Positions 1 to 26,943 of a stretch of 27,908 nucleotides of DNA are shown here, in pieces. How positions within the stretch are numbered: position 1 is the first letter of the stretch; the number at the start of each line of letters is the position of its first letter. The DNA lies in the NCBI GenBank assembly GCA_964408735.1, contig CAYPAX010000063.1, forward strand, positions 1-27,908, in the 5' to 3' direction. This stretch comes from an uncultured Rhodospirillaceae bacterium. Its GTDB lineage: Bacteria; Pseudomonadota; Alphaproteobacteria; UBA7887. The notes beneath the pieces are model-generated. The model had not been told where the DNA came from. It searched no databases and saw only the letters and a list, made by a program, of their open reading frames with translations. A program made the position numbers and the translations under genes.

Positions 1-252
1 CACGGGGATCACATCGCCCGGTTCATAGCGTCCGGCATCGAGCCAGAGCTGCCAGTCCGATTGGTTGTCCGCGACTTCGAATCTGTCATCCAGGCTCGCG
101 ACCCGATGCGTGCCAGAATCTAGCTCATCGACCGCTGTGGTGAGATCTTCATATTCCTCGACGACAGCCAGCGACTGACCCGCAGGCAGCCACAGCGCCA
201 AGCCCAATATTGCCAGGGCCAGCGGCCGCGCGCCTAGAGCAGGGCCACGCAT
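1..252 (-). CDS. Partial CDS (N-terminus only; continues past the window start): hypothetical secreted protein with a predicted signal peptide (MRGPALGARPLALAILGLALWLPAGQS...)
   Basis: Minus-strand ATG at 252 opens a reading frame that runs off the window edge. It has a hydrophobic signal-peptide-like N-terminus and G/C-rich third codon positions. It does not appear in the ORF track because it has no stop inside the window. Confidence 0.35.
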   Translation of the reverse strand, partial: MRGPALGARPLALAILGLALWLPAGQSLAVVEEYEDLTTAVDELDSGTHRVASLDDRFEVADNQSDWQLWLDAGRYEPGDVIPV

Positions 253-644
253 TTCCTCAGGCCATCGGCCTCGGCGCCGGCGTAGGCTTGCAGCTCTTCG
301 TCGGTGCTTTCGCCTGCCCCGCCAAGCGAAAATGCGACGCCGCCGCTGCTGCCCTTGAGCGGCTGGGTGGCGCCGATGCTCGCGCGGCCGAACTGGGCGC
401 GGGTGATATCGTGCTCGGGGACGGTGAGGCGGCACAGCACCACCACCTCGTCGCCTTCGCGGCGGCGCTCGGCGAACTCGACCTGCCAGCCGTCGCCGTA
501 GCGGTCGTTGAGAAAGCGCTCCGGCTCGGAAACCTCCGCTTCGCGGCTTGCCGCGCGCGCTACCGGCTGAGGCCCGCCGGCCAGGGCATCGAGTTCGCGG
601 CGCGCCTCATCAAGCATCGTATCGAAAGGCGAGTCGGCGGTCAT
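234..644 (-). CDS. Standalone small protein (~136 aa) carrying the recurrent ~90-aa domain that also forms the N-terminal extensions of both HyuB proteins; possible Rad52/Rad22-like fold
   Basis: Its ATG at 644-642 overlaps the upstream hydrolase stop at 643-641 (ATGA coupling). The motifs RYGDGWQVEF...VVVLCRLTV...G and ADGLRKCVALL are clearly paralogous to residues ~65-135 of the HyuB at 7642 (FGDAWTFEV...VTVLCKLIV...DDALIKCAALFG) and residues ~10-80 of the HyuB at 24862. Confidence 0.6.
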   Translation of the reverse strand: MTADSPFDTMLDEARRELDALAGGPQPVARAASREAEVSEPERFLNDRYGDGWQVEFAERRREGDEVVVLCRLTVPEHDITRAQFGRASIGATQPLKGSSGGVAFSLGGAGESTDEELQAYAGAEADGLRKCVALL

Positions 645-1345
645 GGGGCGCTCGCACTCTGATTCCACCACTGGCGGAAATCTGCCTGCACACGGTCTGC
701 GGTAGCCGTGGCGAGGCCGCGCAGCGCGGCCAGCACCTCGCCGCTTGGCACCACGTCGCCGTATTTGGCGTCGATGTCGAACAGGTTGGCCTGGTGTGGC
801 CCCTCGGCACGGTCGCCCACCGCGTCCTCCACCACCACGGTGAGATAGCCGTTTTGCAGCGAGTCGATGGCGGAAGCGCGGATGCAGCCGCTCGTGGTGC
901 AGCCAGCCATGACGATTGTGTCGACCGCCAGCGCCTGCAGTCGCGCCTGCAGGTCGGTGCCGAAAAAGGCACTGGCATATTTCTTCTCCAGCACCGGCTC
1001 ACCGAATTGCGGTGGTATGCGCGCGTCGACCTCGACCATGGCCGAACCCTTGACCAGGATCGACAGGGCAGGGACCTTCTTGATGAAAACGCCCGCGTCG
1101 CGGTAGTGGGGCTCGTAGGCGACCGTGGTGTAGAAGATCGGCAGCTGTTCGCGGCGAAACGCCTCCAAAAGCTGGGCCGTGACTGCAAGCTCCTTGGCGA
1201 AATCGCCACCCAGCCCTGTTGTCGGATCGGTGAAGCCATTGATGAAATCGACCACCAGCAGGGCAGGGCTCTTGCCGAAGCCCGAGCGGTCGGCGAAGCC
1301 CTTGCGCCGGTATTCGGCAAAGGTATCGGTCTGCGATTTATCCAT
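641..1345 (-). CDS. Isochorismatase-family cysteine hydrolase (N-carbamoylsarcosine-amidase / RutB-like)
   Basis: It has the LLVVDFINGF motif and the catalytic-Cys region MAGCTTSGCIRASAID typical of the isochorismatase/CSHase family. The preferred start is the second ATG (MDKSQ, minus coordinate 1345), with a GGAGG 5 nt upstream. The ORF-track start at 1357 would make that GGAGG part of the coding sequence. Confidence 0.85.
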   Translation of the reverse strand: MDKSQTDTFAEYRRKGFADRSGFGKSPALLVVDFINGFTDPTTGLGGDFAKELAVTAQLLEAFRREQLPIFYTTVAYEPHYRDAGVFIKKVPALSILVKGSAMVEVDARIPPQFGEPVLEKKYASAFFGTDLQARLQALAVDTIVMAGCTTSGCIRASAIDSLQNGYLTVVVEDAVGDRAEGPHQANLFDIDAKYGDVVPSGEVLAALRGLATATADRVQADFRQWWNQSASAP

Positions 1346-1477
1346 GCGCACCTCCATGCCTGGTACAGACGATACTCCTTGCGCATTGGCGCATCAATCT
1401 GCAGCCCCGCTTGATCGCGGCGGGTGGCGGCGCTATCAACGATGGTCGGGGAAACGCATTGGCTGCGGAGGCGGGTT

Positions 1478-3913: not shown

Positions 3914-3970
3914 ATTTACACTTCTGTGTATTTTCTTGTTGGCAAATTACACATAAGTGTGTATTTATCG
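3914..3970 (+). promoter_or_regulatory. Putative hicAB promoter/operator region containing two palindromic sites
   Basis: TTGGCA (3939-3944), a 17-nt spacer, then TATTTA (3962-3967). Palindrome TACAC-TTCT-GTGTA lies at 3917-3930. Palindrome TACACA-TAAG-TGTGTA lies at 3948-3963, between the -35 and -10 elements. The region is AT-rich relative to its surroundings. Confidence 0.4.
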
Positions 3971-3996
3971 GTCAACAGAGAGCGAACGAGGGCGCC

Positions 3997-4179
3997 ATGC
4001 GTTCCAGAGAACTTTTCCGTAAGCTTCGCAGAGCCGGCTGCGACATAGAGCCCCGCAAAGGCGGCCACCACCTGGTCACGCGCGGCAAGCGCCGCATCAT
4101 CGTGCCCTATCACGGCACCAAGGAGATCGGAAAGGGCCTGCTGGAGAAGATCAAAAGGACCCTCGACGTGGATCTGTGA
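3997..4179 (+). CDS. hicA: HicA-family mRNA-interferase toxin (type II TA)
   Basis: A 60-aa protein reading MRSRELFRKLRRAGCDIEPRKGGHHLVTRGKRRIIVPYHGTKEIGKGLLEKI, matching the HicA/YcfA signature. GAGGG lies 5 nt upstream of the ATG at 3997. Confidence 0.85.
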   Translation: MRSRELFRKLRRAGCDIEPRKGGHHLVTRGKRRIIVPYHGTKEIGKGLLEKIKRTLDVDL

Positions 4180-4189
4180 CAATGCATAT

Positions 4190-4243
4190 GAACCGCAACC
4201 GAACCGAAACCGCAAACCGCAACCGAAACAGAAACCGCACCCA
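4190..4243. repeat. Degenerate tandem (A)AACCG(C) microsatellite-like repeat (~8 units) in the hicA-hicB spacer
   Basis: Seen directly in the sequence: gaaccgcaaccgaaccgaaaccgcaaaccgcaaccgaaacagaaaccgcaccc. Confidence 0.6.
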
Positions 4244-4254
4244 AAGGTCCCACC

Positions 4255-4698
4255 ATGCTCGAATATCCCGTGTCCATGGAGAGCGACACTAACGATACCG
4301 TCCTGCTTCAGTTCCTCGACTTCCCCGAGGCCGTCGCCATCGGCGACGATGAAGACGACGCCCTCGCCAACGCCATCGAAATCCTGGAGATCGCCATAGC
4401 CGAAAAAATCGCCCGCCGGGAGGCCATCCCGGCCCCGTCCAAGGCCCGCAACAACCCGACCGTCACTCTCCCAACCCAGGTGGCGGTCAAGGTGCTGCTC
4501 TACCAGACCATGCGCGACGAGAAGGTTCGCAAGGCAGAGCTGGCGAGGCGCCTGCACACCCGCCCCAACACGGTGGAACGCCTGCTCGACCTGAGACACG
4601 CCAGCCGCATGGACCAGCTCGACGCGGCTTTCGCCAGCCTCGGCAAGCGCCTGGTGGTTCAGCTCTCGGGCGCCTCCGCGCGCCGAACCACCGGCTGA
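4255..4698 (+). CDS. hicB: HicB-family antitoxin with a C-terminal DNA-binding (HTH/RHH-like) region
   Basis: It lies immediately downstream of hicA. The N-terminal HicB-like fold reads YPVSMESDTNDTVLLQFLDFPEAVAIGDDEDDALANAIEILEIAIAEKIARREAIPAPS. The C-terminal part (ELARRLHTRPNTVERLLD) looks like a DNA-binding module. Confidence 0.8.
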   Translation: MLEYPVSMESDTNDTVLLQFLDFPEAVAIGDDEDDALANAIEILEIAIAEKIARREAIPAPSKARNNPTVTLPTQVAVKVLLYQTMRDEKVRKAELARRLHTRPNTVERLLDLRHASRMDQLDAAFASLGKRLVVQLSGASARRTTG

Positions 4699-4880
4699 GA
4701 GGCAGGCCCGAGCGCCAGGCTCTCGGCCGCCACCTCGGCCTCGAACAGCAGGCGCCGGTGGCGCTTCGCATCGGGCGAGGCGGGATCGGCCGCGATCAGG
4801 CGCCGCAGCGTTGCCGCCCTGGCATTGGCGCGCTTGATCCATTCTGACAGCACATCGTGTTGCGTGATAAAGGTCGGCAT
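4659..4880 (-). CDS. Possible small hypothetical protein (73 aa), convergent with hicB and overlapping its 3' end
   Basis: The ORF has high GC3 and an ATG at 4880, but only a weak, distant RBS. No recognisable motifs. Confidence 0.25.
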   Translation of the reverse strand: MPTFITQHDVLSEWIKRANARAATLRRLIAADPASPDAKRHRRLLFEAEVAAESLALGPASQPVVRRAEAPES

Positions 4881-4912
4881 TGATGCGCTGCCCGCCTCCG
4901 GCCGCCAATCTC

Positions 4913-5428
4913 TTAACGCGCCGCACCCCGTCCCGGCGGGCGCTTGGGGCGCCAGCCCGTGCGGAAGGCGCGCACCACGTGGTGCAGCAGGTAGAAGGCC
5001 AGCGTCAAAATCACCAGCAGCACGATGGTGACCAGGCGCGAGCCGAAGGCCGGGTCGAAGATGGCGCCGTTGCCGATCAGGTGCTCGCTGAGCATGACGA
5101 TGGCCTGCAAGGTGGCGCCGGCACAGAAGATCACCGCTATCAGGATGGCGATCTGCAGGGTGTCGAAGACCAGTTCCTCGGGCTCCAGCTCAGCGACAGG
5201 GCGGAAGAACTTGGCGCGGAAAGTCTGCCAATGGGCGATCGTGTAGCCCACCACGCCGACCAGGGATGCAAACCAGAAAATCAGGTTGTCCGAGCGGATA
5301 TGGGTCAGGCCCTCGACCACGAAGGCTTCGAACGGTTGGTAATAGTAGAGGAAAATCAACAGGATCACGAGGGCCACGACAGTGACCCAAACGCGCGTAA
5401 TCAGGGGATTGGCGGAGCTTTCTTCCAT
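4913..5428 (-). CDS. Small integral membrane protein (~4 TM), unknown family; paralogous to the ORF at 19730..20194
   Basis: It has hydrophobic segments and shares the motif LIFLYYYQPFE with LIFLYFYQPFE in the paralog. It is divergent from hyuA. Confidence 0.7.
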   Translation of the reverse strand: MEESSANPLITRVWVTVVALVILLIFLYYYQPFEAFVVEGLTHIRSDNLIFWFASLVGVVGYTIAHWQTFRAKFFRPVAELEPEELVFDTLQIAILIAVIFCAGATLQAIVMLSEHLIGNGAIFDPAFGSRLVTIVLLVILTLAFYLLHHVVRAFRTGWRPKRPPGRGAAR

Positions 5429-5487
5429 GCTTCGACGCTACACCAAAGCCACGGAAGCGTCCACACGCCCGCCGCCGCCCGTAGGAG

Positions 5488-5516
5488 TTGACCCACCGGG
5501 CCGCGGGCGCGATCAT
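5488..5516 (+). promoter_or_regulatory. Candidate sigma70-like promoter for hyuA (TTGACC-N17-GATCAT)
   Basis: A hexamer pair with 17-nt spacing lies in the divergent intergenic region ~55 nt upstream of the hyuA ATG. Confidence 0.25.
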
Positions 5517-5572
5517 TGGCCATCGCCGCAAGGCGAGGGTGGGACACGGCGTTGCGAGTGGGGAAGAACAGC

Positions 5573-7645
5573 ATGGCCAGCAGGCTTGGCATTGATGTCG
5601 GGGGCACTTTCACTGACCTCTTGCTGTTCGACGACGACAGCGGCGAGATCCATCTCGCCAAGACCCCGTCGACGCCTGCCGACCAATCGGTGGGAATCCT
5701 CACCGGCATAGAAAAGATCGTGACGGAGACTGGTGTCGCGCCCTCCGCCATCCGCGGGCTTCTGCACGGCACCACCGTATCGACCAATATCGTGCTCGAG
5801 GAGAAGGGCGCACGCGTCGGGCTCATCGTCACCGAGAATTTCGAGCAGGTGCTGCATATGGCGCGTTCGCAGACGCCGGGGCCGCTGGCGGGCTGGATGA
5901 TCATGATCAAGCCCGACCCCCTGGCCGATCTCGAGCTCACCCGCGGCGTGCCCGAGCGTCTGGATTCCCGCGGCAACGTGCTGACCCCGCTCGACGAGGC
6001 CCGCACCCGCGACGCCATAGCCGAGCTCATCGACGGCGGCGCGGAATCCATCACCGTCTCCCTCCTGCATTCCTACGCCAACCCGGTGCATGAGCAGCGC
6101 GTGCGCGATCTCGTGCACGAGGTCGAGGCCGATCTGCCGGTCTCTCTGTCGTCGGAAATCCTGCCCGAGTTCCGCGAATACGAGCGCGCCCTGGTGGCCG
6201 TGATGAACGCCTATGTGCGCCCCAGCATGCGCCGTTACCTGAGCAGCTTCGTCGATAAGCTCAGCGGCATCCAGTTCTCGCCGCATGTCAACATCATCCG
6301 CTCCGATGGCGGCCTGATGAGTGTCGACAGGGCCTCGGAATCACCGGTCCACACCATGTTGTCGGGGCCTGCCGGCGGTGTCTCGGGGGCGGCGTTCGTG
6401 GCCGGGCTTGCCGGCTTTCCCGATGCCCTCGGCTTCGACATGGGCGGCACCTCGACCGATGTCTCGCTGATCCGCGACGGTAAGCCGACTATCTCGCGCC
6501 AGACTTCGCTCGGTTACTACCCCATCAAGATTCCCTCGGTGGAGGTGCACAGCGTCGGCGCCGGCGGCGGCTCCATCGCCCATGTGCCGATGACCGGCGC
6601 GTTGCGCGTCGGCCCCGAGAGCGCCGGCGCCGATCCCGGGCCCGCCTGCTACGGCAAGGGCGGCGATCAGCCCACCGTGACCGACGCCAACGTGGTGCTG
6701 GGGCGCCTGCCGCCCGCTCTCCTAGGTGGCGAGATGGCGCTCGATGTGAAAGCGGCGGAGGAGGCGGTGGACAAGATCGGCCGCGCCATCGGCCTCGACA
6801 CCCACCAGGCGGCACAGGGCATTCTCGACATCGTCAACGAGAACATGTTCGGTGCGCTCAGGCTGCTGACGGTGCAGAAGGGGCTCGACCCGCGCGACTT
6901 TGCGCTCGTCGCCTTCGGTGGTGCCGGGCCGCTGCACGCCAATGCCGTCGGCATGCTGGCCGGCTCGAGCCCGGTCATCGTGCCGCCTACACCTGGCGTG
7001 CTTTCGGCCCTCGGATTTCTCTATTCCGACGTCAAGAACGAGTTCGCCCAGACCTTCATCCGCAATATCGGCGGTATCGAGTCCGGCGAGGTCAGCGAGA
7101 TTCTCGCCCGCCTCGGCAACGAAGCCCGCAACTGGCTGCGCGAGGAAGGCATCGAGGAGCGCCGCCAGGGCCTCAGCTTCGAGGTCGACGTGCGCTATTT
7201 CCGCCAGGGTTACGAATTCTCCCTCGATGTCGATCCCGAGCGCCTCGGCAATGGCGGCATGGCCGATATTGCCGAGCGCTTCGGCGGCGCTCATGAGCGC
7301 CTCTACGGCTTCCGCCTCGAACAGCCGGTAGAGCTGGTCAATCTGCGGGCGGTCGGCACGGGGCAGGTGGTCAAGATCGAGTTTCCCGCCCACGAGCCCG
7401 TCGGCCCGGATGCCTCGGCCGCCGTGGTCGAGCAGCACCAGGTCTATTTCGACGGCAATTTCTACAGTGCCAACATATACGACCGCAGCCTTTTGCAGGC
7501 TGGCCATCGCGTCTCCGGCCCGGCGGTCGTGCTGCAGAAGGATTCGACCACAGTCATCCACCCCGGCCATGTCGGCGAGGTGGACAGCTATCTCAATATT
7601 CTCATTCGTCCCGAAGGGGCGGCCATGAAGGGTGCCGAAAGATGA
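5573..7645 (+). CDS. hyuA: Hydantoinase A / N-methylhydantoinase A / 5-oxoprolinase-family subunit A (ATP-hydrolysing)
   Basis: The N-terminus reads MASRLGIDVGGTFTDLLLFD, with full-length HyuA-type similarity (IRSDGGLMS, DMGGTSTDVS). The preferred start is the ATG at 5573, with GGGGAAG upstream. The stop overlaps the hyuB start (ATGA at 7642-7645). Confidence 0.9.
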   Translation: MASRLGIDVGGTFTDLLLFDDDSGEIHLAKTPSTPADQSVGILTGIEKIVTETGVAPSAIRGLLHGTTVSTNIVLEEKGARVGLIVTENFEQVLHMARSQTPGPLAGWMIMIKPDPLADLELTRGVPERLDSRGNVLTPLDEARTRDAIAELIDGGAESITVSLLHSYANPVHEQRVRDLVHEVEADLPVSLSSEILPEFREYERALVAVMNAYVRPSMRRYLSSFVDKLSGIQFSPHVNIIRSDGGLMSVDRASESPVHTMLSGPAGGVSGAAFVAGLAGFPDALGFDMGGTSTDVSLIRDGKPTISRQTSLGYYPIKIPSVEVHSVGAGGGSIAHVPMTGALRVGPESAGADPGPACYGKGGDQPTVTDANVVLGRLPPALLGGEMALDVKAAEEAVDKIGRAIGLDTHQAAQGILDIVNENMFGALRLLTVQKGLDPRDFALVAFGGAGPLHANAVGMLAGSSPVIVPPTPGVLSALGFLYSDVKNEFAQTFIRNIGGIESGEVSEILARLGNEARNWLREEGIEERRQGLSFEVDVRYFRQGYEFSLDVDPERLGNGGMADIAERFGGAHERLYGFRLEQPVELVNLRAVGTGQVVKIEFPAHEPVGPDASAAVVEQHQVYFDGNFYSANIYDRSLLQAGHRVSGPAVVLQKDSTTVIHPGHVGEVDSYLNILIRPEGAAMKGAER

Positions 7646-9909
7646 CGGAGTCCGCGCAACGCCGCTCGATCTCCCTCGATGATCTGCTCAAGAGCAGCAA
7701 GGAGCAGTTCGATACGATCTTCGCCAGCCAGATGCGCGAGATCGGCCTGGTTGCCGCCGAGCGCCGTCCGCCCACCGCTGAGGATATCGCCTCCGCCAGC
7801 ATGCCCGCCGGCAATGGTGAGGCCGATGTCGGCGACCGGCTCAACGCCCAGTTCGGCGATGCCTGGACCTTCGAGGTGGTCGAGCACAAGAGCGAGCGCG
7901 GCTCGGTGACGGTGCTTTGCAAGCTCATCGTCAATGGCGCGTCGAAAATGCAGTTCGGCGCCGCGCGCATCAACGGCGATCCGGGTGCGGCGCTGCAGCG
8001 GGCGACGGATGATGCGCTGATCAAATGCGCCGCGCTGTTCGGCGAAGCGATGGAAGCCCCGCCACAGCAGGCGAAGCCGACCAGCACACCGGTATCGATG
8101 CCCGCGCGCCCGGCTGCCGCGCCCGGCAATCGCGGCCTCGACACCATCACCCTCGATCTCATCGAGAACGCGCTGCGCAATGCGCGCCACGAAATGGATG
8201 CAGTACTATTCCGCTCCGCCATGTCGCCGGTGATCCGCGAGCAGCACGACGAGTTCCCCATGATCACCGACGCCAAGGGGCGCATGATCGTCGGCCAGTT
8301 CGGCTCCTACGTCTCGGAGATGCTGCGCGAGCAGAACATGGACCTGCATCCCGGCGATATCATTTTGCAAAGCGATCCCTACAAGTGCGGCGGCGCCATC
8401 AGCCACATCAACGACTGGATGGTGCTAGTGCCGATCTTCCACGAGGGCGAAGTGGTCGGCTTCAGCTCCATGTTCGGCCACATGATGGATGTCGGCGGGC
8501 CGGTACCCGGCAGCATGCCGACGGCGGCCAGCTCGGTGTTCGGCGAAGGCATCAAGATTCCACCTCTCAAGGTCTACGAGAAGGGCGAGCCCAACAAAGC
8601 CGTGCTCGACCTCTTGATGAACAACACCCGCACCCCGGAGATGAACTACAGCGACCTGATGGCGATCATCGCCGGCAGCCGCGCCGGCGAGCGCCGGGTC
8701 ATCGAGATTTGCGACCGCTTCGGCCGCGAGACCTACAAGCAGGCTTGCGAAGCGTTGCTGGAACGCACCAACCGCGCCATGCGTCAGCTCATCGTGCAGA
8801 ACCTGCCCGAAGAGCCGCAATCTTTCGAGGACTACGTGGACGACGACGGCCTCGGCAACGGCCCCTTCAAGATGAAGCTCACGGTCTGGCGCGAGGGCGA
8901 GCACGCCTATTTCGATTGGACCGGCACGTCCGAGCAGGCGCCGGGGCCGATCAACTTCTATCTCCACGACGGCATGTTCAAGATGTTCATCGGCGTTTAC
9001 ATGATCATGGTCTTCGACCCGCAGATCCTCTTCAACGACGGCTTCTACGACCTCATCCATGTGACCCTGCCCAAGGGCTCGCTGGTGCATCCCAATTTCC
9101 CGGCCGCTCTGGGCTGCCGTACACACGCCCTGGCGCGCCAGTTCGACGTGCTCGGCGGCGCGCTCAGCAAGAAGGCGCCGGAGATGGCCACCGCCGCCGG
9201 CTATGGCTCCAGCCCGCACTTCCTCTATTCGGGCGTCGACGGGGAAGGCCAACCTTTCCAGCTCATGGAAATTCTCTATGGCGGCATTCCCGGTCGCCCC
9301 ATCGGCGACGGCATGGATGGCCATTCCTGGTGGCCGCTGTTCGAGAACATTCCTGCCGAGTATCTGGAGAGCTACTACCCGATGCTAATAGATGGCTATA
9401 CCACCATCGCCGACAGCGGCGGCGCCGGCCTCCATCGTGGCGGTAACGGTGTCGAGAAGATCTATCTGCTGCGGTCGGAGGGCGAAATATCAATCCATGA
9501 CGACAGGCACTTGACACAGCCCTGGGGTATCCTCGGCGGCAGGCCGGGGGCGTGTTCGGAAAAGTGGCTGCTGCGTGCCGACGGCTCGCGTGAGGCGCTG
9601 CCGTCCAAGATCGACAACGTCAAGGTCCGCGACGGCGACCGCGTCATCTTCCGCACCGCCGGTGGTGGCGGTTGGGGGAACCCGCTGGAGCGGGAGCCCC
9701 AGCAAGTGCGTGCCGATGTCGCGCGGCGGCTGGTCAGTCGCGAGGCCGCGCGCGAAAATTACGGCGTCGTGCTCAGCGCGGACGGTAGCAGCCTGGATAG
9801 TGCTGCCACCCGCGATTTGCGTGAGAGCATGAAGCGTGGCCGCAAGGAGGCGCCGGTGTTCGATTTCGGCGAGCGGCCATCGGCCAACGCCGCTGCGCGA
9901 ACGAGCTGA
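7642..9909 (+). CDS. hyuB: Hydantoinase B / oxoprolinase-family subunit B with a ~160-aa N-terminal extension (recurrent Rad52-like domain plus Pro-rich linker)
   Basis: The HyuB core starts around ITLDLIENALRNARHEMD and continues with typical HyuB blocks (DWMVLVPIFHEGEVVGF, GGGWGNPLEREP). The N-terminal ~160 aa are absent from canonical ~580-aa HyuB proteins. Confidence 0.9.
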   Translation: MTESAQRRSISLDDLLKSSKEQFDTIFASQMREIGLVAAERRPPTAEDIASASMPAGNGEADVGDRLNAQFGDAWTFEVVEHKSERGSVTVLCKLIVNGASKMQFGAARINGDPGAALQRATDDALIKCAALFGEAMEAPPQQAKPTSTPVSMPARPAAAPGNRGLDTITLDLIENALRNARHEMDAVLFRSAMSPVIREQHDEFPMITDAKGRMIVGQFGSYVSEMLREQNMDLHPGDIILQSDPYKCGGAISHINDWMVLVPIFHEGEVVGFSSMFGHMMDVGGPVPGSMPTAASSVFGEGIKIPPLKVYEKGEPNKAVLDLLMNNTRTPEMNYSDLMAIIAGSRAGERRVIEICDRFGRETYKQACEALLERTNRAMRQLIVQNLPEEPQSFEDYVDDDGLGNGPFKMKLTVWREGEHAYFDWTGTSEQAPGPINFYLHDGMFKMFIGVYMIMVFDPQILFNDGFYDLIHVTLPKGSLVHPNFPAALGCRTHALARQFDVLGGALSKKAPEMATAAGYGSSPHFLYSGVDGEGQPFQLMEILYGGIPGRPIGDGMDGHSWWPLFENIPAEYLESYYPMLIDGYTTIADSGGAGLHRGGNGVEKIYLLRSEGEISIHDDRHLTQPWGILGGRPGACSEKWLLRADGSREALPSKIDNVKVRDGDRVIFRTAGGGGWGNPLEREPQQVRADVARRLVSREAARENYGVVLSADGSSLDSAATRDLRESMKRGRKEAPVFDFGERPSANAAARTS

Positions 9910-9957: not shown

Positions 9958-12750
9958 ATGCTTGAGCTAGGCGTCACGATCTTCATCATCGCGGTGGTCG
10001 TCATCGCGATCGTCTACATCATCTCGATCTGGATCTACAAGAGGGCGCCCGCCAATATGGGCTTCATCCGGACGGGCTTCCTCGGCACCAAGGTGTGTGT
10101 CGGGCAGGGCGCGGTGGTGCTGCCGGTGTTCCACGAGATCACCTGGGTATCGCTTGAGACTATCAAGCTTATCGTCAGCCGCGCGCGCGACCAGGCGGTA
10201 CTGACCTCGGACAAGATCCGTGTCGATGTCATCGTCGAGCTCTATGCCCATGTCGGGCGCACCGAGGACGACGTGCTGGTCGCCAGCCGCAGCCTCGGCG
10301 ACAAGACCTTCGATCCCGATCGCGTGCGCAGTCTGCTCGAAGCCAAGATCGTTAGCGCCTTGCGCAGCCATGCCGCAACGAAGACCTTGAGCGAGCTGCA
10401 CGAGAACCGCGAGGATTTCGCCAAGGCGATCAAGGGAAGCGCCATCGAGAGCTTCCAGGCCAATGGCCTGACGCTTGAAGAAGCGACCATCGTTACCCTG
10501 GAGCAGGCCGGCAAGGAATATTTCAAGACCGACAATATCTTCGATGCCGAAGGCCTGAAGATCATCACCGCGGTCACCTCCGACGCCAAGCGCAAGGTGC
10601 ACGAGACGGAGAAGCGGACCACGGTCGCCATCCGCCAGAAGGACCTCGACACCCAGCTCGAGCTGTTGGAGATCGAACGCAAGGAGGCTTTCGCCCGGGC
10701 CGGCCAGGACAAGGACGTCTCAAACGAGCAGGCGCTGCAGCTTGGACAGAAGCAGGTCTATGTGCTCGACCAGCGCATGTCGGTCGAGCAGCGCGAGATC
10801 GAGAACGAGAAAGAGCTCGAACGCATGCGCACCGAGCGCGACGTGGCCGTCACGGAAGAGGCGCAGAAACGCCAGACCAGCGAAATCCGTATGGAGCGGG
10901 CGCTGGAGGCCGAGCGCCGTGAGAAGGAGATCGCGCTCATCGCCAAGGCCAAGGAAGAGGAGCTTGCCGACGTCGAGCGCAAGCTGGAATTGGAAAAGGC
11001 CGAGCGCGACCGCCAGATTGCGCTGATCGCCAAGGCCGAGCAGGAGGAGCTTGCCGATATCGGTCGCGACCTGGCCCGCCAGCAGGCCGAGAAAGACCGC
11101 GAGATCGAGATGCTGTTCAAGGAGCAGGAGCGGCAACGCGCAGACATTCAGCGCATCACGGCGGTTACGGCAGAGGAGGAGGCGGCGCGCAAGGCCCGCC
11201 ACGCCGCGGCCGAGGACGCCGCTCTCGACATGCGCAAACGCAGCCTGGAAACGCGGCTCGCGGTTCTCGATATCGACAAGGACGAGGCGGTCGCCACTAC
11301 CCAGCAGGAGCGCGAGGTCTCGGACGAGAAGGCCCGGGTGCTGGCCGAGAAGCAACGCTTCATCATCGAGCAGCGCTGGGCCGTGCAGCAGGAGGAGATC
11401 ACCAAGGAGGAGGCGCTTGAGAGGGCGCGCATCGCCAAGGAGACGGCCGTCATCGAAGAGTCGAAGCAGCGCGAGGCCGCCGAAGTTCGCCGTGCGCTCG
11501 CCCGCGAGCAGGAAGAGCGCGACCGTGAGATAGCGCTTGTCGGCAAGGCCGAGGAACTGGAAGCGGCGAAACGCGACCGCGAGATTGCCTTGGTCGCCAA
11601 GGACGAGGCTTTGCGCATCGCCGAGGAGCGTCAGGCCAAGGCCGTCGCCCTTGAGGAGCGCGAGCGCGAGATTGCCATCATTCAGAAGGAGCAGGAACGC
11701 GAGAAGGCTGACATCCAGCGCTTTCTGGCCCGCGAGCAGGAGGAGCGCGACCGCGAGATCGCTCTGGTGCGCAAGACCCGCGAGCTGGAGAGCGCCGAGG
11801 TCGAGCGCCTGGCGACCACGGCGGAGAAGGAGCGCGCCGAACATGAGGTCGAGTCCGTGCGCGTGGTCGCCGACGAAGAGCGCGCAAAGGTTATCGAGGT
11901 GCTGGCGGCGGAAAAGCTTGCCGAGGCCCAGCGTGTCGAGGAGGAGGCCAAGGCGCAAATCTCCAGCATGCACATGCTTAGTCAATCCACGGCGCGTAAG
12001 GAAGCGGCGGCGGAGGAGGCCGAGGCCATTCTTGCCCGGGCCCGCGCCAATAGCGAGGCGCAGCAGATCGGTGCGCTGGGCATCGAGCGCGAGGCCGGCG
12101 CGGCAGGCCGGGCCGAGATGGAGATCGAAGCGCTCAGGGCGGAGAATGCCCGCCGCATGCTGGAAGCCGAGGCCGGCGGCATCGAGGCCAAGGCCGATGC
12201 CCTGAAGAAGTACAACGACGCGGCCACCTTCCTCGAGCTGGCCAAGCTGCATATCGAGGCCGAGCGCGACATCCATATCGACCAGGCCAAGGCCATGGGC
12301 AACGCCCTGCAGAACGCCCAGATCCGCATGTATGGCGGCGGCGGTGGCGACGACGGCACCATCGATACCCTGCGCGGCCTGTTCACCCGCGGCTTCGGTC
12401 TCGGCGAGGTGCTGGAGGGCGTTGCCCAGTCGCTGCCGGAAGGCCTGCGCGAGCGCTTCGCCGCCAACGGCATTCGCGGCCTTTTCGGCCGGCCCTATCC
12501 GGGTGGCTCGCTGACCCAGGCCTACGCCCAGCTGGAAGTGCTGGTGGGCAAGGCCATGCGGTCGAAGAAAGCCCGCGAGATCCCGGTCGCAGAAGCCATG
12601 CCCAAGCTGGTCGAGGCGGCGGGCGAGGACGAGGCGGGGCTGGCCGCGGTGGCCATGTTGCGCGAATTCAACCAGCAGGGCGCTTTCGACGACGTGGCCT
12701 TCGAGACCGTATGGTCCTTGTTGCAGGCCGCGGCCGCCAAGCTCGATTGA
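9958..12750 (+). CDS. Flotillin-family / SPFH (band-7) membrane protein (YqiK-like) with a greatly expanded coiled-coil repeat region (930 aa)
   Basis: An N-terminal TM helix is followed by an SPFH core (YKRAPANMGFIRTGFLGTKVCVGQGAVVLPVFHEITWVSLETIKL...SELHENREDF) and then ~600 aa of E/R/A/K-rich heptad repeats (REIALIAKA..EELA repeated). Confidence 0.85.
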   Translation: MLELGVTIFIIAVVVIAIVYIISIWIYKRAPANMGFIRTGFLGTKVCVGQGAVVLPVFHEITWVSLETIKLIVSRARDQAVLTSDKIRVDVIVELYAHVGRTEDDVLVASRSLGDKTFDPDRVRSLLEAKIVSALRSHAATKTLSELHENREDFAKAIKGSAIESFQANGLTLEEATIVTLEQAGKEYFKTDNIFDAEGLKIITAVTSDAKRKVHETEKRTTVAIRQKDLDTQLELLEIERKEAFARAGQDKDVSNEQALQLGQKQVYVLDQRMSVEQREIENEKELERMRTERDVAVTEEAQKRQTSEIRMERALEAERREKEIALIAKAKEEELADVERKLELEKAERDRQIALIAKAEQEELADIGRDLARQQAEKDREIEMLFKEQERQRADIQRITAVTAEEEAARKARHAAAEDAALDMRKRSLETRLAVLDIDKDEAVATTQQEREVSDEKARVLAEKQRFIIEQRWAVQQEEITKEEALERARIAKETAVIEESKQREAAEVRRALAREQEERDREIALVGKAEELEAAKRDREIALVAKDEALRIAEERQAKAVALEEREREIAIIQKEQEREKADIQRFLAREQEERDREIALVRKTRELESAEVERLATTAEKERAEHEVESVRVVADEERAKVIEVLAAEKLAEAQRVEEEAKAQISSMHMLSQSTARKEAAAEEAEAILARARANSEAQQIGALGIEREAGAAGRAEMEIEALRAENARRMLEAEAGGIEAKADALKKYNDAATFLELAKLHIEAERDIHIDQAKAMGNALQNAQIRMYGGGGGDDGTIDTLRGLFTRGFGLGEVLEGVAQSLPEGLRERFAANGIRGLFGRPYPGGSLTQAYAQLEVLVGKAMRSKKAREIPVAEAMPKLVEAAGEDEAGLAAVAMLREFNQQGAFDDVAFETVWSLLQAAAAKLD

Positions 12751-20254: not shown

Positions 20255-21655
20255 TCAACCGAGCGGCGGCCGCTGCTCGTGCCACGGCGTCGCCTGCTCG
20301 TAGGCATGGGCCAGGCGCAGCAGGTCGGCCTCCTCGAACCAGCGGCCGATGAGCTGTAGGCCGATGGGCAGGCCGCTGGCGGTAAAGCCGCAGGGCACGG
20401 AGACCGCTGGCTGGCCCGTGAACGGCGCCAGGCGGGTGAGGCGGCCGAGCACCTTGACGCCGTCGACCGTCTTGCCGGCCACCTCGATCTCGCAAGTCTC
20501 GATCGGCACTGTCGGTATCGGCGCGGTGGGGCAGAGCAGGGCGTCGACGTTTCCCATCAGCGCGCGCATGGCCGCGATGGTGTCACCTCGAACCAGCTCC
20601 GATTCCGCCGCCTGCTCGGGCGTCATCTCGCTGCCGCGCAGCAGGCGCTCGCGCACGTCAGGCGAAAAATCGTCGCGATGGTCACGCAAATTCGCCTCGT
20701 GCACCTTGTAGGCATCGGTCAGGGCGAGAATGTCCCAGGCCCTGTTTGCGGCGCGAATATCGAAGGGCAGGGTGATTTCCGTCACCTCCGCCCCCAGGCC
20801 CGCAAGCACGGCGGCGGCGGCGCGTACGGCGGCCTCGACCTCCGGGTGGAGGTCGTCGAAGAACACCGGGTTCGGCAGGGCGATACGCATGCCCGTGATC
20901 GGCCGGCCGAGCCCTGCCGTGTAGTCGGCGGTCTTGGCGTCGGCCGTGCTCGGGTCGTTGGCATCGCTGCCGGCGATCGCGGCGAGCATCAGCGCCGCGT
21001 CGCTCACCGTGCGTGTCAAGGGCCCGCCGTGATCGAAGCGCTCGCTGAGGGGCTGGATGCCGTGGCGGCTGGCCAGCCCGTAGGTCTGCTTCAGGCCGAC
21101 CACGCCGCACAGCGCCGCCGGGATGCGGATCGAGCCGCCGGTGTCGGTGCCGAGCGTCGCCGCCGCTAAATGCGCCGCCGTGGCACAGCCCGAGCCGCTG
21201 CTCGAGCCGCCGCTGACGCAATCCCGCTGCCAGGGATTGCGCGCGCTGCCGTGGTGGGGATTGACTCCGGTCGGCCCGAAGGCGAACTCATGCAGGTTGA
21301 GCAGGCCGAGGATAACCGCGCCGGCGGCCTCCAGGCGCGCGACCGAGGTGGAACTCTCCGTCGCCGGCTCTTCACGGAAGAAGGCCGAGCCGCAGGTCCG
21401 CACCATGCCTTCGACCTTGAACAGGTCTTTCACTGCCAGCGGCACCCCGTGCAGCGGCCCGCGATAGTCGCCCGCCGCGATCTCGGCCTCGGCGCGCTGC
21501 GCCGCGGCCAGCGCCCGCTCGCCATCGACGGTGATATAGGCATTGAGATCGGCGTGCGCCTCGATGCGGTCGAGATAGGCCTGTGTCAGTTCGACCGGTG
21601 ATATCTCGCGGCGGGCGATCAGCGGTGCCAGGGTGGTGATGTCCATATCGATCAT
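20255..21655 (-). CDS. Amidase-signature (AS) family amidase (GatA-like)
   Basis: GGSSSGSG, AATLGTDTGGSIRIPAALCGVVGLKQTYG, and the Ser-cisSer-Lys region. Start taken at MIDMDITTL (minus coordinate 21655), overlapping the upstream gene's stop (ATGA). The longer ORF-track N-terminus overlaps the upstream gene and is rejected. Confidence 0.9.
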   Translation of the reverse strand: MIDMDITTLAPLIARREISPVELTQAYLDRIEAHADLNAYITVDGERALAAAQRAEAEIAAGDYRGPLHGVPLAVKDLFKVEGMVRTCGSAFFREEPATESSTSVARLEAAGAVILGLLNLHEFAFGPTGVNPHHGSARNPWQRDCVSGGSSSGSGCATAAHLAAATLGTDTGGSIRIPAALCGVVGLKQTYGLASRHGIQPLSERFDHGGPLTRTVSDAALMLAAIAGSDANDPSTADAKTADYTAGLGRPITGMRIALPNPVFFDDLHPEVEAAVRAAAAVLAGLGAEVTEITLPFDIRAANRAWDILALTDAYKVHEANLRDHRDDFSPDVRERLLRGSEMTPEQAAESELVRGDTIAAMRALMGNVDALLCPTAPIPTVPIETCEIEVAGKTVDGVKVLGRLTRLAPFTGQPAVSVPCGFTASGLPIGLQLIGRWFEEADLLRLAHAYEQATPWHEQRPPLG

Positions 21656-22746
21656 GCGGCAGCCTCCGGGATGGCGACGAGCAGCAGGATACCGTAGAGC
21701 ACGATGAACACCGCGTCCTTGAAGGCCCCGATGCCGTGGCGCGCCGTATCGCGCGAGGCAATGAGCTGGATGATCTCGAGCACCAGGAAGATCAGCGTCA
21801 GCAGGAAGCACGGCCACAGGCTCTCCCACCACGAGCCCTCGACCTCGGGCACAGCCTGCACGCTGCGCCAGATCAGCAGCAGGATCGGCAGCAGCGCCAC
21901 ATAGGCATAGGCGAGCAGGAAGCGCAGGCGGAAGCGCTTGCGGTCGACGAGCCAGAAGGCGAGCAAGAAGGCGGCGATGTTGACCACGTCCCAGAACATT
22001 CCCCGATAGACCTGCTCTTCCAGCGGCTGCCAATGGCGCAGGTTGAGATAGGCGAGCATCAGGAACAGCACGAAGGCGTCGCAGAACAGCCACTCGCGCA
22101 GGGTCTCGGCGGTGCCCTTGTTGGCCCAGGCCCGGCTGGCCTTGTCGACCAGCAGGACGAGGCCCACCGCCAGGGCAGCGGGATAGAGCAAATCGCGCAA
22201 GATTAGGTACTGGTCGGGGCGGTCGAGATAGGTCCAGTTGAGCAGCAGAATGGCCAGCGCGAAGCCGAGCAGGCCGAGCAGGCGTACCGCGGACGGTGTC
22301 TCGAACTCGGCGGCCGGCTCAGGCTCGGGTTTGGGCGCGGCGGGCGCGGCGTGGCCTTCCTCGGCGGGCAGGATACGGGCGAACAGCACCACCACGAAAG
22401 CGACGAGGCCGAGCGCCGCGGCGATCAGCATGACGGTGAAGAAGTTGTCGGCGCGGTTGCCGCTGCGCCAGTCCTCGGGCTCCGCCGCCAGCGGCGCCTC
22501 TTCGCCCTCGACCACCTCGACCGGAATCTCGTCGGGGCCGCCGAGCAGGGGCGGGAACTGCCAGGCCAGCACGACCACCACCAGCACCAACAGCACCAGT
22601 GCCAGGGCGAACTCGTACCAGCGCGGTGCCCGCACCAGCCGCGTCCCGCCGGCGCTCCTGGTCAGCAGCAAGACCAGGAACGCGACGATGCCGACGATGG
22701 CGACAGCCGCCATCACCTCCAGGAAAACGATATGCTGACTATCCAT
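21652..22746 (-). CDS. Polytopic integral membrane protein of unknown function (~9-10 TM) with an acidic/Pro-rich loop
   Basis: It has multiple hydrophobic helices and the loop EEGHAAPAAPKPEPEPAAEFETPSA. It sits between hyuB' and the amidase with coupled stops and starts. The start at 22746 (MDSQHIVFLEV) is preferred; the alternative at 22797 would overlap hyuB'. Confidence 0.65.
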   Translation of the reverse strand: MDSQHIVFLEVMAAVAIVGIVAFLVLLLTRSAGGTRLVRAPRWYEFALALVLLVLVVVVLAWQFPPLLGGPDEIPVEVVEGEEAPLAAEPEDWRSGNRADNFFTVMLIAAALGLVAFVVVLFARILPAEEGHAAPAAPKPEPEPAAEFETPSAVRLLGLLGFALAILLLNWTYLDRPDQYLILRDLLYPAALAVGLVLLVDKASRAWANKGTAETLREWLFCDAFVLFLMLAYLNLRHWQPLEEQVYRGMFWDVVNIAAFLLAFWLVDRKRFRLRFLLAYAYVALLPILLLIWRSVQAVPEVEGSWWESLWPCFLLTLIFLVLEIIQLIASRDTARHGIGAFKDAVFIVLYGILLLVAIPEAAA

Positions 22747-24862: not shown

Positions 24863-26943
24863 TGTGGCTGCATCCTGATGACGAGGTTGCCGTGGGTGTC
24901 GGTCTCGGCGGCGAGCCCCGGCGGCACCACGGTATTGGTATCGGCCTGCTCGATGATAGCCGGCCCCGCCACTTTATCGCCGGCGCTAAGCTGCGACCGG
25001 TCATAGATCGGCGTATCGATGCTGCGCGCCTTGCCGCCCTCGTCGAAGATCACCTGGCGGCTGGCCTCGGCACTCGGCTGACCACCGCCCTCTGGCAACC
25101 GGGCGGCAGCAAGCTCCGGCATCATACCGGTGCCGACCACGCGGATATTCACCAATTCCACCGGCTTCTCGTCAAAACGACGGCCATATTCGCGCTCATG
25201 CGCGGCATGGAAAGCGGCGGTCAGGCGGCCGACGAAGCCACTGTCCGTGCTGCCGTCGTCGAGATCGACTCGCAGCTCGTAGCCCTGGCCCTGGTAGCGG
25301 CACTCGGCGATACGCTCGAAACGGCGCTGATCGGCGGCGATGCCGTCCTTGTCGAGGCGTTCCGTGGCGAGATTCTCCAGCTCGCCGAACGCTTCCCCGA
25401 TCCGGGCGACGTCGGCCTGGCCGAGCAGCTGCAGGGTGGTGCGGCTGAAGTCGTAGGAGACGTCGGTGGCGAGCAGGCCCTCGGCCGAGGTCAGGCCGGG
25501 GCTCGGCGGGATTACCACGGCGGGAATGGCAAGCTCCGCCGCCACCGTGCAGGCGTGCAGCGGGCCGGCGCCGCCGAAGGCGACCAGGGCGAATTCGCGC
25601 GGATCGTAGCCCTTGCGCACGCTGTTGAGCTCGATCGACTGGATCATGCCGTGGTCGAGGATCTTCAGGGCTCCCAGCGCGGCCTCCTCGAAGCTCATGT
25701 CCAGCGCCGGGCAGAGATGGGTCTCGATGGCGCGGCGCGCCAGGTCTGTGCGCAGTGCCATGCGCCCGCCCAGGAAATTGTCCGGATTGAGCCGGCCGAG
25801 CACGGCCTGGCAATCGGTCGCCGTCGGCTGCTCGCCGCCGCGGTCGTAGCAGCACGGACCGGGGATGGCGCCGGCACTGCGCGGGCCCACGCGGAAGACG
25901 CCGCCGCGATCGACATAAGCCAGCGAGCCGCCGCCGGCGCCGATGGTGTCGATATCGGCCATCGGCACCATCGCCTGATAGGCGCCGATGCGCGTGTCCA
26001 GGAGATGCTTCATGGTCATCGAGCCGCCGGGGGCGACGCCGATATCGGCCGAGGTGCCGCCGACATCGAGGGTGATGGCGTTGTCGAAGCCGGCGAGGTT
26101 GGCCGCGCGGATGCCGCCGATCAGCCCGGCGACCGGGCCTGACATGAGCAGCGTCACCGGGCGTTCGCTGGCGCCCTCGGTGGTCGCGGCACCGCCATTG
26201 GCCTGCATCAGATGCAGCTCGGCGCCGAAATCCTTCTCCGCCATCGCCGTGTCGAGATTGCGCACGTAGGAGGACGTGCGCGGTCCCACATAGGCGTTGA
26301 GGCAGGTCGTGCTGAAGCGCTCGTATTCGCGATATTGCGGGATCACTTCGTGGCTGACGGAGAGGTAGACCTCGGGCCATTCCTCGCGCACGATCGCCGC
26401 CGCGCGCTTTTCGTGCGCCGGATTGAGGAAGGAGAACAGGAAGCAGATTGCCACCGCCTCGACATCGGCTTCCTTGAGCCTGGCCACCGCAGCGCGCACC
26501 GCGTCCTCGTCGAGCGGGGTCAGCACCTCACCGTCCGGTGCTGCGATGCGCTCGGGCACGGGAAGGCGATAGCGCCGCCGCACCAGGGGGTGGCTCTGCC
26601 AGGGCAGGTCCTGCTGGATGCTGAAATTGTAGGGCCGCTTGTGCCGCGCGATATGCAGGATATCGCGATAGCCCTCCGTGGTGATCAGGCCGGTGCGCGC
26701 GCCGTCATGCTCGAGCGCGATATTGGTGGCGATGGTGGTGCCGTGGAAGAACTGCCCGACATCCCGCGGCGCCACCCCGGCCTTCTCGCAGACCTCCAGC
26801 GCGCCCTCGATGACGCCCTGAGAGGGGTCGTCGGGCGTCGTCGGCAGCTTGTTGAGCGTCGCCGCGCCACTGGCATCGTCGACCAGCACCAGGTCCGTAA
26901 AGGTCCCCCCGACATCGACACCCAATCGGATCACACGTGACAC
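24859..26943 (-). CDS. hyuA: Hydantoinase A / oxoprolinase-family subunit A (second copy)
   Basis: The N-terminus reads (V)SRVIRLGVDVGGTFTDLVLVDD. It shows full-length similarity to the first hyuA at the protein level only. GTG start at 26943, or the GTG 3 codons downstream (26934); GAGGGGA lies just upstream. Confidence 0.9.
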   Translation of the reverse strand: MSRVIRLGVDVGGTFTDLVLVDDASGAATLNKLPTTPDDPSQGVIEGALEVCEKAGVAPRDVGQFFHGTTIATNIALEHDGARTGLITTEGYRDILHIARHKRPYNFSIQQDLPWQSHPLVRRRYRLPVPERIAAPDGEVLTPLDEDAVRAAVARLKEADVEAVAICFLFSFLNPAHEKRAAAIVREEWPEVYLSVSHEVIPQYREYERFSTTCLNAYVGPRTSSYVRNLDTAMAEKDFGAELHLMQANGGAATTEGASERPVTLLMSGPVAGLIGGIRAANLAGFDNAITLDVGGTSADIGVAPGGSMTMKHLLDTRIGAYQAMVPMADIDTIGAGGGSLAYVDRGGVFRVGPRSAGAIPGPCCYDRGGEQPTATDCQAVLGRLNPDNFLGGRMALRTDLARRAIETHLCPALDMSFEEAALGALKILDHGMIQSIELNSVRKGYDPREFALVAFGGAGPLHACTVAAELAIPAVVIPPSPGLTSAEGLLATDVSYDFSRTTLQLLGQADVARIGEAFGELENLATERLDKDGIAADQRRFERIAECRYQGQGYELRVDLDDGSTDSGFVGRLTAAFHAAHEREYGRRFDEKPVELVNIRVVGTGMMPELAAARLPEGGGQPSAEASRQVIFDEGGKARSIDTPIYDRSQLSAGDKVAGPAIIEQADTNTVVPPGLAAETDTHGNLVIRMQPQ

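Follow-up and report, generated by a model that had tools for sequence, protein, structure and literature searches.

What is a domain related to DNA-annealing proteins doing at the front of a metabolic enzyme? The question is raised by a stretch of 27,908 nucleotides from an uncultured Rhodospirillaceae bacterium (contig CAYPAX010000063.1 of assembly GCA_964408735.1), which is taken here at its full length and called the window. It has a G+C content of about 65% and contains two hyuA-hyuB pairs. The B subunit of the first pair, HyuB1, carries an N-terminal extension, and further copies of the domain in that extension are found at the N-terminus of the second B subunit, HyuB2, and in a small free-standing protein. 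The three copies are called T1, T2 and T3. A first-pass annotation of the window, made from the letters alone, had compared the extension with the core of Rad52, Rad22 and Mgm101. We find that the extension is almost certainly homologous to Rad52 and that the scaffold of the Rad52 fold is retained, but that what is particular to its DNA groove has been lost or relaxed. The parts of the first pair are as follows.

5573..7645, plus strand: HyuA1, the partner ATP-binding subunit (690 amino acids (aa) in public records), translationally coupled to HyuB1
7642..9909, plus strand: HyuB1, 755 aa, in the order N-helix, linker 1, Rad52-like core, linker 2, Hydantoinase_B catalytic domain
7669..7749, plus strand: conserved amphipathic N-terminal helix of HyuB1 (aa 10-36, SLDDLLKxxKxQFDxIF), modelled by AlphaFold2 as a helix over residues 12-35 at a predicted local distance difference test score (pLDDT) of ~90
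7750..7824, plus strand: linker 1 (aa 37-61), Ala/Ser-rich and of low model confidence, situated where the beta1-beta2 hairpin of Rad52 would be
7825..8055, plus strand: Rad52-like core, subtype T1 (aa 62-138), corresponding to about residues 69-160 of human RAD52
8056..8139, plus strand: linker 2 (aa 139-166), a Pro/Ala-rich flexible tether, hypervariable in sequence and length
8140..9909, plus strand: catalytic region of HyuB1 (Hydantoinase_B)

The start codon of HyuB1 overlaps the stop codon of hyuA1 (ATGA), and the Pfam Hydantoinase_B profile then matches aa 167-681 over its entire length (positions 1-519 of 519; E 2.7e-148). The caprolactamase CapB (6yra_B, 581 aa) aligns, from its own residue 5, to the first HyuB1 residue past the extension. 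Since the Pfam match begins at aa 167 and the CapB alignment begins only after the extension, aa 1-166 are additional to canonical HyuB, much as had been said of the first ~160 residues. By sequence, HyuB1 is a true HyuB over its C-terminal 590 residues (aa 167-755 complete). The nearest solved relatives of this catalytic region are N-methylhydantoinase (7hk5, E 3e-76) and CapB itself (E 1e-60). Like the HyuB, N-methylhydantoinase B, CapB and 5-oxoprolinase proteins of PF02538, HyuB1 comprises a complete HyuB with an adjacent HyuA, and this pairing is kept in related loci. Canonical HyuB starts at the catalytic domain, whereas the window HyuBs carry a Rad52-like module that no described member has. 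A Pfam scan of aa 1-173 returns no family, and neither window HyuB shows a family besides Hydantoinase_B. The sequence on which the Rad52 comparison had been based (LNAQFGDAWTFEVVEHK...ALIKCAALFG) is found at aa 67-134 of HyuB1.

Direct searches with the domain return almost nothing. In hmmscan against Pfam, aa 1-173, full HyuB1, HyuB2 and T3 give no Rad52_Rad22 match even at E<=10. The domain has no match in NCBIfam or in the plasmid collection, and its sole match in PHROGs is a weak one to phrog_37405 (function not known; E 3e-4). The homology is apparent solely through intermediates. These were reached with a profile of 77 positions, A2, built only from the three copies in the window and their HyuB-linked relatives. 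A2 has no match among PDB sequences. A search of 1.84 billion representatives with A2 yields 910 proteins at E<=1e-3, of which 176 reach E<=1e-10. Its best 150 matches include 143 new proteins, and when these were scanned with Pfam, 71 matched Rad52_Rad22 (PF04098; best E 2e-19), 8 Mgm101p, 2 SSAP_Sak and 14 Hydantoinase_B. Bona fide Rad52_Rad22 proteins are retrieved by A2 at E 1e-15 to 1e-11. Two such relatives of ~200 aa, P0082 and P0074, score 58.7 and 47.2 bits against the Pfam gathering cut-off of 20.3; the intermediate P0059 reaches only E 0.019 against PF04098. Relatives of the P0082/P0074 type read ...PFxPxxIKQRxGxxGxxLDYVEGHxVIxRLNxAFxGxWSFEVxEH...VVLGKL...KxQFG...DALKKCATLxGVGLHLY.

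The HyuB-type and Rad52-like families can also be aligned directly as profiles. An hhalign comparison of 55 HyuB-type sequences (A4) with 50 Rad52-like proteins (A5) gives a probability of 99.7% and E 5.8e-26 over 115 columns. The alignment, over columns 11-139, also sets the N-helix of HyuB1 against the segment preceding the hairpin in the Rad52-like proteins. The A5 profile in turn finds yeast Rad52 in the PDB (8g3g, E 7e-10) and human RAD52 (1h2i and 1kn0, E 1.6e-6), and relatives from viral contigs and from BFVD carry the annotations Rad52/59/22 or Sak3. On this sequence evidence, we consider it very nearly certain that the extension is homologous to Rad52. Its closest relatives are phage and prophage Rad52/22 proteins of ~200 aa, and the domain apparently came from a phage recombinase. 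The motif alignment given in the first-pass annotation (FG..W / V.V / G / DxLKxxLxxFG) agrees with the alignment obtained. The proposal of a Rad52/Rad22/Mgm101-type core stands in profile, profile-profile and fold comparisons; it does not stand as a direct Pfam match, and only about two-thirds of the domain is kept.

The comparison with the phage and prophage Rad52/Rad22 single-strand annealing proteins (SSAPs; PF04098, ~200-240 aa) can be made more specific. The core is 30-44% identical to theirs and has the same alpha2-beta3-beta4-beta5-alpha3 topology. The shared motifs are RLNxxFGxxWSFEVxEH, V.VLG/C.L, K.QFG and A..DALKKC. Unlike the phage SSAPs, the window domain is without the N-terminal PF..IKxRxGxxGxxLxYV hairpin segment, the C-terminal GVGLxLY with its tail, and the near-invariant lysines. 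It is also joined or linked to metabolic enzymes and is not in a recombination or terminase neighbourhood. By contrast, a full-length relative of 230 aa in the viral contig L082 lies ~1.7 kb from a 539-aa open reading frame (ORF) that by eye is terminase-like. Among the A2 relatives, Rad52-like cores occur in other architectures too: a SWIM zinc finger plus a Rad52-like domain, a core plus a Cds6_C/NTF2-like domain, and a Rad52-like domain with a weak HTH_32 tail (P0102, P0122 and P0082). One relative taken as a HyuB-type copy, L075 from Desulfosarcina, is actually a truncated Rad52-like ORF.

An AlphaFold2 model of HyuB1 aa 1-148 was made from an input alignment without any canonical Rad52 sequence. 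It has a mean pLDDT of 85.4, rising above 95 in the core. Helices are predicted at residues 12-35, 46-52, 63-71 (alpha2) and 114-138 (alpha3), and strands at 75-85, 88-97 and 100-109 (beta3-beta5), so that the core is alpha-beta-beta-beta-alpha. In Foldseek searches of the PDB, RAD52 rings come out on top. The top match in BFVD is a phage Rad52/59/22 protein at 32% identity. In the model, then, the core fold of the SSAP superfamily, alpha2 and alpha3 with a three-stranded antiparallel beta3-beta5 sheet, is present. Because the alignments are transitive, human equivalents can be assigned: F71, G72 and W75 of HyuB1 correspond to F79, G80 and W84, G106 to G125, and D124-G134 to D149-G159. The FG..W and D149-G159 positions are matched and a Cys lies on alpha3, as in the RAD52 N-terminal domain and Mgm101 (1kn0, 5jrb, 8g3g, 9yi6). 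Folds of the double-stranded RNA-binding domain (dsRBD) type score close behind RAD52 in the structure searches. The dsRBD, the N-domain of ribosomal uS5, HPF and Rv1738 have this fold class in common with the window domain. The Pfam scan gives no match to dsrm, and all significant sequence links lead to Rad52.

We then asked which parts of an annealase remain. In known annealases, alpha2 and alpha3 make up the core together with two flanking elements, the beta3-beta5 sheet and the beta1-beta2 hairpin. These two elements are the walls of the single-stranded DNA (ssDNA) groove, the hairpin being the outer one, and basic residues of alpha3 bind the phosphates; the hairpin is described as a defining SSAP motif (PMC12633383; PMC11783212). 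The HyuB-type domain covers about positions 35-132 of the 153 positions of PF04098, or about two-thirds of the Rad52 domain. The beta1-beta2 hairpin is absent, its place in both T1 and T3 being taken by an Ala/Ser-rich linker of low model confidence. In the model there is no strand before residue 75, and aa 37-61 form low-confidence coil plus a short helix. Human R55 and Y65, residues of the RAD52 hairpin, accordingly have no equivalents. At the other end, the C-terminal GVGLxLY segment and the following helices are replaced by the Pro/Ala tether, so that alpha4 and alpha5 of RAD52 and Mgm101 are also missing. The disordered partner-binding tail of RAD52 is likewise absent; the window domain is instead tethered to an enzyme. 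On alpha3, three basic columns of the alignment behave as follows.

Column 59: Rad52-like proteins K (100%), T1 Q, T2 E, T3 R
Column 67 (human K152): Rad52-like proteins K (92%), T1 variable, T2 R, T3 A
Column 68 (human R153): Rad52-like proteins K (90%); T1, T2 and T3 K or R (53-90%, depending on the subtype)

In HyuB1 itself, the residues at human K152, R153 and R156 are I127, K128 and A131, so that only R153 is matched. The alpha3 basic residues that contact phosphates in Mgm101 are R193 and K196 (PMC12633383). C129, also on alpha3, is near-invariant in the HyuB-type domain. From the K/R-C motif, it probably corresponds to the segment of the buried Mgm101 cysteines C194 and C195 (PMC12633383). 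The net charge of the core, about -2, is no different from that of true Rad52-like proteins and so is uninformative; as a discriminator of HyuB-type from Rad52-like domains it was set aside. A metal site formed by E81, H82, C93 and C129 was also considered and rejected, these residues not being conserved across the subtypes. Taken with the model, the sequence indicates that the canonical ssDNA groove has probably been lost. Because it lacks the hairpin, the conserved set of alpha3 basic residues, a recombination context and a direct match above the Pfam threshold, we regard the domain not as a Rad52-family recombinase but as an offshoot of its superfamily that has diverged and been truncated.

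The fusion is not an artefact of assembly, since the exact protein recurs and the ORF is continuous across species. The identical 755-aa protein is found on 9 contigs from NCBI, JGI and ENA, named in public records as 'N-methylhydantoinase B', with one fragment named '5-oxoprolinase (ATP-hydrolysing)'. A scan for orthologues with one genome per species returned 76 loci, almost all from uncultured Alphaproteobacteria (Rhodospirillaceae, Xanthobacteraceae, Hyphomicrobiales, and Amylibacter and Ruegeria metagenome-assembled genomes). The nearest of these, at 94% identity, is again from an uncultured Rhodospirillaceae bacterium. The domain and a complete HyuB share one continuous ORF of 750-830 aa in 53 of the 76 loci, the rest being contig ends or broken ORFs. 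Over these 53 orthologues, identity to the window is 83% in the catalytic domain, 66% in the core (aa 62-136) and 60% in the N-helix (aa 10-36), as compared to 38% in linker 1 and 17% in linker 2. Linker 2 ranges from 30 to 55 aa and is made up of 22% A, 13% P and 13% R, which bears out the Pro-rich linker to the catalytic domain that had been read from the sequence. With its core and N-helix conserved while the linkers drift, the extension has the marks of a folded, selected module on a flexible tether, and by this sequence comparison the core is under purifying selection.

Several apparent variants of the fusion did not hold up. The 'stand-alone' hits of 160-230 aa in the first homology search are mostly truncated or frameshifted fusions and not separate proteins: tails such as STRFRSI* come from reading LDTVSLDLI in the +1 frame, and many genes are split in the contigs of origin. 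In L001, L002 and the sources of hits P0003-P0045, ENA metagenome assemblies (contig_NNNN) fragment hyuA, hyuB, cobW and the Band_7 gene. The Arg-rich tails of P0003-P0045-type 'proteins' are out-of-frame HyuB, and database clusters built from them thereby give the false impression of a stand-alone domain. The word-indexed homology search missed the query's own 755-aa cluster. What looked like a HyuA-domain-HyuB triple fusion in L049, a stop-to-stop ORF of 1486 aa, is no fusion but an alternative frame without stops that runs over hyuA. An isochorismatase-T3 'fusion', P0162, also looks frameshifted.

The second and third copies in the window show the domain in other settings.

22757..24862, minus strand: HyuB2, 701 aa, with a 126-aa N-terminal extension
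24620..24862, minus strand: T2 subtype of the Rad52-like core, forming aa 1-81 of HyuB2; it has no N-helix and begins directly at alpha2
24485..24619, minus strand: Pro-rich linker of HyuB2 (aa 82-126)
22757..24484, minus strand: catalytic region of HyuB2 (Hydantoinase_B from aa 127)
24859..26943, minus strand: HyuA2, which pairs with HyuB2; the stop codon of one gene overlaps the start codon of the other
234..644, minus strand: T3, a free-standing protein of 136 aa with an N-helix (aa 6-21), a disordered linker and a Rad52-like core (aa 40-134)
641..1357, minus strand: gene for an isochorismatase-family hydrolase, translationally coupled to T3, the pairing being kept in related loci

Hydantoinase_B matches HyuB2 over aa 127-653 (E 1.1e-152). 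In pairwise BLASTP, copy 1 matches copy 2 at E 1e-10 (38% over 72 aa) and copy 3 at E 1e-10, while copies 2 and 3 match at E 3e-4; the kinship of the HyuB1 domain to the ORF at 234..644 and to the N-terminus of the HyuB starting at 24862 had already been pointed out. Residues invariant across all three include G72, W75, E81, V91, L95, G106 and C129 in HyuB1 numbering. The N-helix motif SLDDLLKxxKxQFD occurs in T1 and also in the free-standing T3, whose start codon overlaps the stop of the isochorismatase-like gene (ATGA). The model of T3 has the topology of T1 plus an additional beta-hairpin inserted before alpha3. This insertion, aa 90-112 of T3 (237..530, minus strand), reads GSSGGVAFSLGG with a conserved G-S-x-x-G-V-x-F-S, and AlphaFold draws it as a hairpin between beta5 and alpha3 at a pLDDT of ~63. 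The loop at that position is longer in true Rad52-like proteins too and shortened in T1 and T2.

The position of T2 is not fixed. The window T2 (HyuB2 aa 6-79) aligns at 47% identity (E 2e-15) to aa 663-737 of the HyuB of another locus, L074. That HyuB (4015..6240 of its contig) has a catalytic domain 52% identical to window HyuB2 and carries its T2-type domain at the C-terminus, as do those of L072 and L077. In other genomes, T3 is followed by HyuA and then by a HyuB with a C-terminal T2-type domain. Judged by these alignments, the N- and C-terminal placement of T2 is a natural domain permutation between related enzymes. Since the N-terminal T2 of the window aligns to a C-terminal T2 elsewhere, and since T3 is free-standing, one module is evidently used N-terminally, C-terminally or as a separate protein.

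What, then, would the domain do? Our favoured reading, to which we give a probability of roughly 50%, is that a truncated Rad52-superfamily domain has been exapted and is now a tethered interaction or multimerisation module. The hairpin would have degenerated to the disordered Ala/Ser-rich linker and the C-terminal helices would have given way to the hypervariable Pro/Ala linker, leaving the N-helix, alpha2, the beta3-beta5 sheet and the long alpha3 with its buried cysteine. Three paralogous subtypes, T1 on HyuB1, T2 on HyuB2 and the free-standing T3, lie in one conserved catabolic island. The domain would have given up DNA annealing, its self-associating core being reused as a flexibly tethered module that clusters HyuA/HyuB complexes, and possibly neighbouring pathway enzymes, into a higher-order assembly. 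By analogy, and at slightly less than even odds, we tentatively assign it a role in tethered protein-protein interaction or in self-association and assembly. Self-association is suggested because Rad52, Mgm101 and phage annealases form rings or filaments (PMC12633383). Among T1 sequences, 85% keep the Asn of RLNxxFG. Going by the correspondence of the LNxxF motif, not by alignment, this residue may be the counterpart of Mgm101 N128, which lies at a subunit interface (PMC12633383). Oligomerisation or interaction is favoured over nucleic-acid binding because the hairpin wall is missing and the phosphate-binding lysines are not conserved.

Three points weigh against the exaptation reading. First, the hairpin and the C-terminal helices help subunit packing in RAD52 rings (PMC12633383), so that with both missing, ring formation may have been lost too. 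Second, a basic residue (K or R) persists at column 68 of alpha3, the equivalent of human R153, in 53-90% of the sequences of each subtype. Third, T3 is free-standing and would be ill-suited to act purely as a tether, except by docking its N-helix on a partner. A more elaborate form of the proposal is speculative and improbable as a whole. In it, the phage recombinase core would have been domesticated as a self-assembling scaffold, and T1, T2 and T3 would co-oligomerise in a ring-like manner as Rad52 does. The two HyuA/HyuB ring-opening amidohydrolases would thereby be brought together with the downstream amidase as a metabolon, which might dock on the co-transcribed YqiK-like protein next to the ABC importer; or, alternatively, RNA or ssDNA binding would couple catabolism to nucleic-acid sensing.

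The rival that survives best, though we consider it unlikely, is that the domain is a small subunit acting in cis. It would dock on HyuA/HyuB much as the gamma subunit does in acetone and acetophenone carboxylases, aiding alpha-beta assembly or regulating ATP-coupled catalysis without any clustering. Both fused copies in the window do lie at a HyuA/HyuB gene junction with overlapping stop and start codons, the domain co-evolves with a particular HyuB clade, and relatives in the enzyme family use small accessory subunits (PMC5214803). However, the gamma subunits known so far bind metal at a four-cysteine site, and no hydantoinase complex is reported to contain one (PMC5214803). The window domain has only two conserved cysteines, C93 and C129, and C93 is missing in T2. 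The hypervariable tether of 30-55 aa and the swap from N- to C-terminus speak against a fixed docking geometry, and in this genome no HyuB is encoded together with T3.

Somewhat less probable still is that the domain binds nucleic acid after all, either ssDNA or, in the manner of a dsRBD, RNA, with a moonlighting or autoregulatory role, for instance through the enzyme's own mRNA or operator. In its favour, the ancestry of the domain lies in a DNA-annealing fold, and its fold class is common with the RNA-binding dsRBD, uS5 and HPF. The equivalent of human R153 is K or R in most sequences, and K102 (in SKMQFG) is conserved as in Rad52-like proteins. Against this, one wall of the groove is gone with the hairpin, and the HyuB-type domain does not conserve the lysines present in 92-100% of true Rad52-like proteins. 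Its core is net acidic and has no Pfam dsrm match. Three paralogues on different enzymes, at one terminus or the other, are also hard to fit to one specific target. Finally, generic convergence on an alpha-beta-beta-beta-alpha fold, or a decaying functionless remnant, might be read from the lack of any direct Pfam, NCBIfam or PDB-sequence match and from the dsRBD-type folds close behind RAD52, but it is very improbable given transitive profile statistics far beyond chance, the common motifs RLNxxFGxxWSFEVxEH, KxQFG and ALKKC with its buried Cys, and a core 66% conserved over 53 genomes next to a linker at 17%.

In the literature library searched, we found no paper connecting Rad52 with hydantoinase or oxoprolinase, in keeping with the suggestion that the architecture is undescribed. 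To our knowledge, Rad52-superfamily proteins have been described only as DNA-annealing or recombination factors. Here selection maintains, on metabolic enzymes, a Rad52 core that is cut down, without its groove wall and duplicated into three subtypes. This holds for at least 53 alphaproteobacterial genomes, most of them from uncultured soil and marine lineages. Neither Pfam nor NCBIfam gives the domain a family, which is a gap in annotation. If the exapted domain is an assembly module, it would show what a Rad52 core does without DNA, that is, which part carries self-association, and it would be a natural, compact, tethered scaffold for enzyme clustering. It would also flag a large uncharacterised clade of ATP-dependent hydantoinase or lactamase enzymes that are of interest for the biocatalysis of creatinine, hydantoins and lactams. 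In quaternary organisation, this clade may depart from the known alpha2-beta2 enzymes. If the metabolon scaffold were true, it would be a previously unknown mode of organising a bacterial catabolic pathway.

The surroundings of the three copies in the window are, in order, as follows.

Left part: T3 (minus strand), isochorismatase-like hydrolase (minus strand), polysaccharide-deacetylase-like protein, CobW GTPase, HicAB insert, membrane ORF with four transmembrane (TM) helices (minus strand)
Middle: HyuA1, T1-HyuB1, a 930-aa SPFH/YqiK-like protein, ABC ATPase
Right part: two permeases and a solute-binding protein (minus strand), amidohydrolase, then amidase, T2-HyuB2 and HyuA2 (all minus strand)
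9958..12750, plus strand: the SPFH/Band_7 (YqiK/flotillin-like) membrane protein of 930 aa; it has a TM helix at its N-terminus, and its very long coiled coil shows internal repeats (ERDREIALV...)

The order [T3, isochorismatase]/polysaccharide-deacetylase-like/CobW/membrane ORF/HyuA/T1-HyuB/YqiK-like/ABC ATPase is kept in ~60 loci. No recombination genes occur in the window, and there as in the ~60 related loci the cluster is one of metabolism and transport. From the HyuB relatives N-methylhydantoinase and caprolactamase, together with the nearby isochorismatase-type hydrolase, amidase and amidohydrolase, we infer by analogy that the island serves the catabolism of hydantoin- or lactam-like N-heterocycles (cyclic amides or ureides). 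In the catabolism of creatinine and N-methylhydantoin, the pathway from N-methylhydantoin through N-carbamoylsarcosine to sarcosine likewise includes an isochorismatase-type hydrolase. The YqiK-like gene, so named by JGI, lies directly downstream of HyuB1 and upstream of the ABC ATPase in nearly all related loci. A protein of this kind is an unusual operon partner for a soluble amidohydrolase, and it is a possible partner or scaffold of HyuB1.

A few neighbours deserve separate mention. The four-TM assignment of the membrane ORF (4913..5428, minus strand; 171 aa) is by eye; the protein has no family match and lies divergently just upstream of hyuA1 in almost every related locus. The HicA toxin (3997..4179, plus strand) and HicB antitoxin (4255..4698, plus strand), identified by Pfam on an identical public contig, lie between cobW and this membrane ORF. 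The comparison with the ~60 related loci was made with a large overlapping minus-strand ORF (3916..4926), which has no counterpart there, and not with HicA and HicB. HicAB may be a recent insertion into the catabolic island. The amidase ORF at 20255..22093 (minus strand) appeared to have a 167-aa extension of its own, but this is a spurious upstream frame. Its upstream ~145 codons are Arg/Ala/Leu-rich, of implausible composition and without a family match, and the real start is near MIDMDITT, probably at ~21655. At the left edge, an ORF of 620 aa (1..252, minus strand, continuing at 10393..12255 of locus L080) carries an evident signal peptide, matches nothing in Pfam or PHROGs, and starts 19 nt before the T3 stop. 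Beyond it in L080 come an AAA_25/DnaB-like helicase gene, several tiny ORFs, and then MerR, HU and plsX. Since other genomes have a HyuA/HyuB pair after T3, an inserted element may sit to the left of T3 in this genome.

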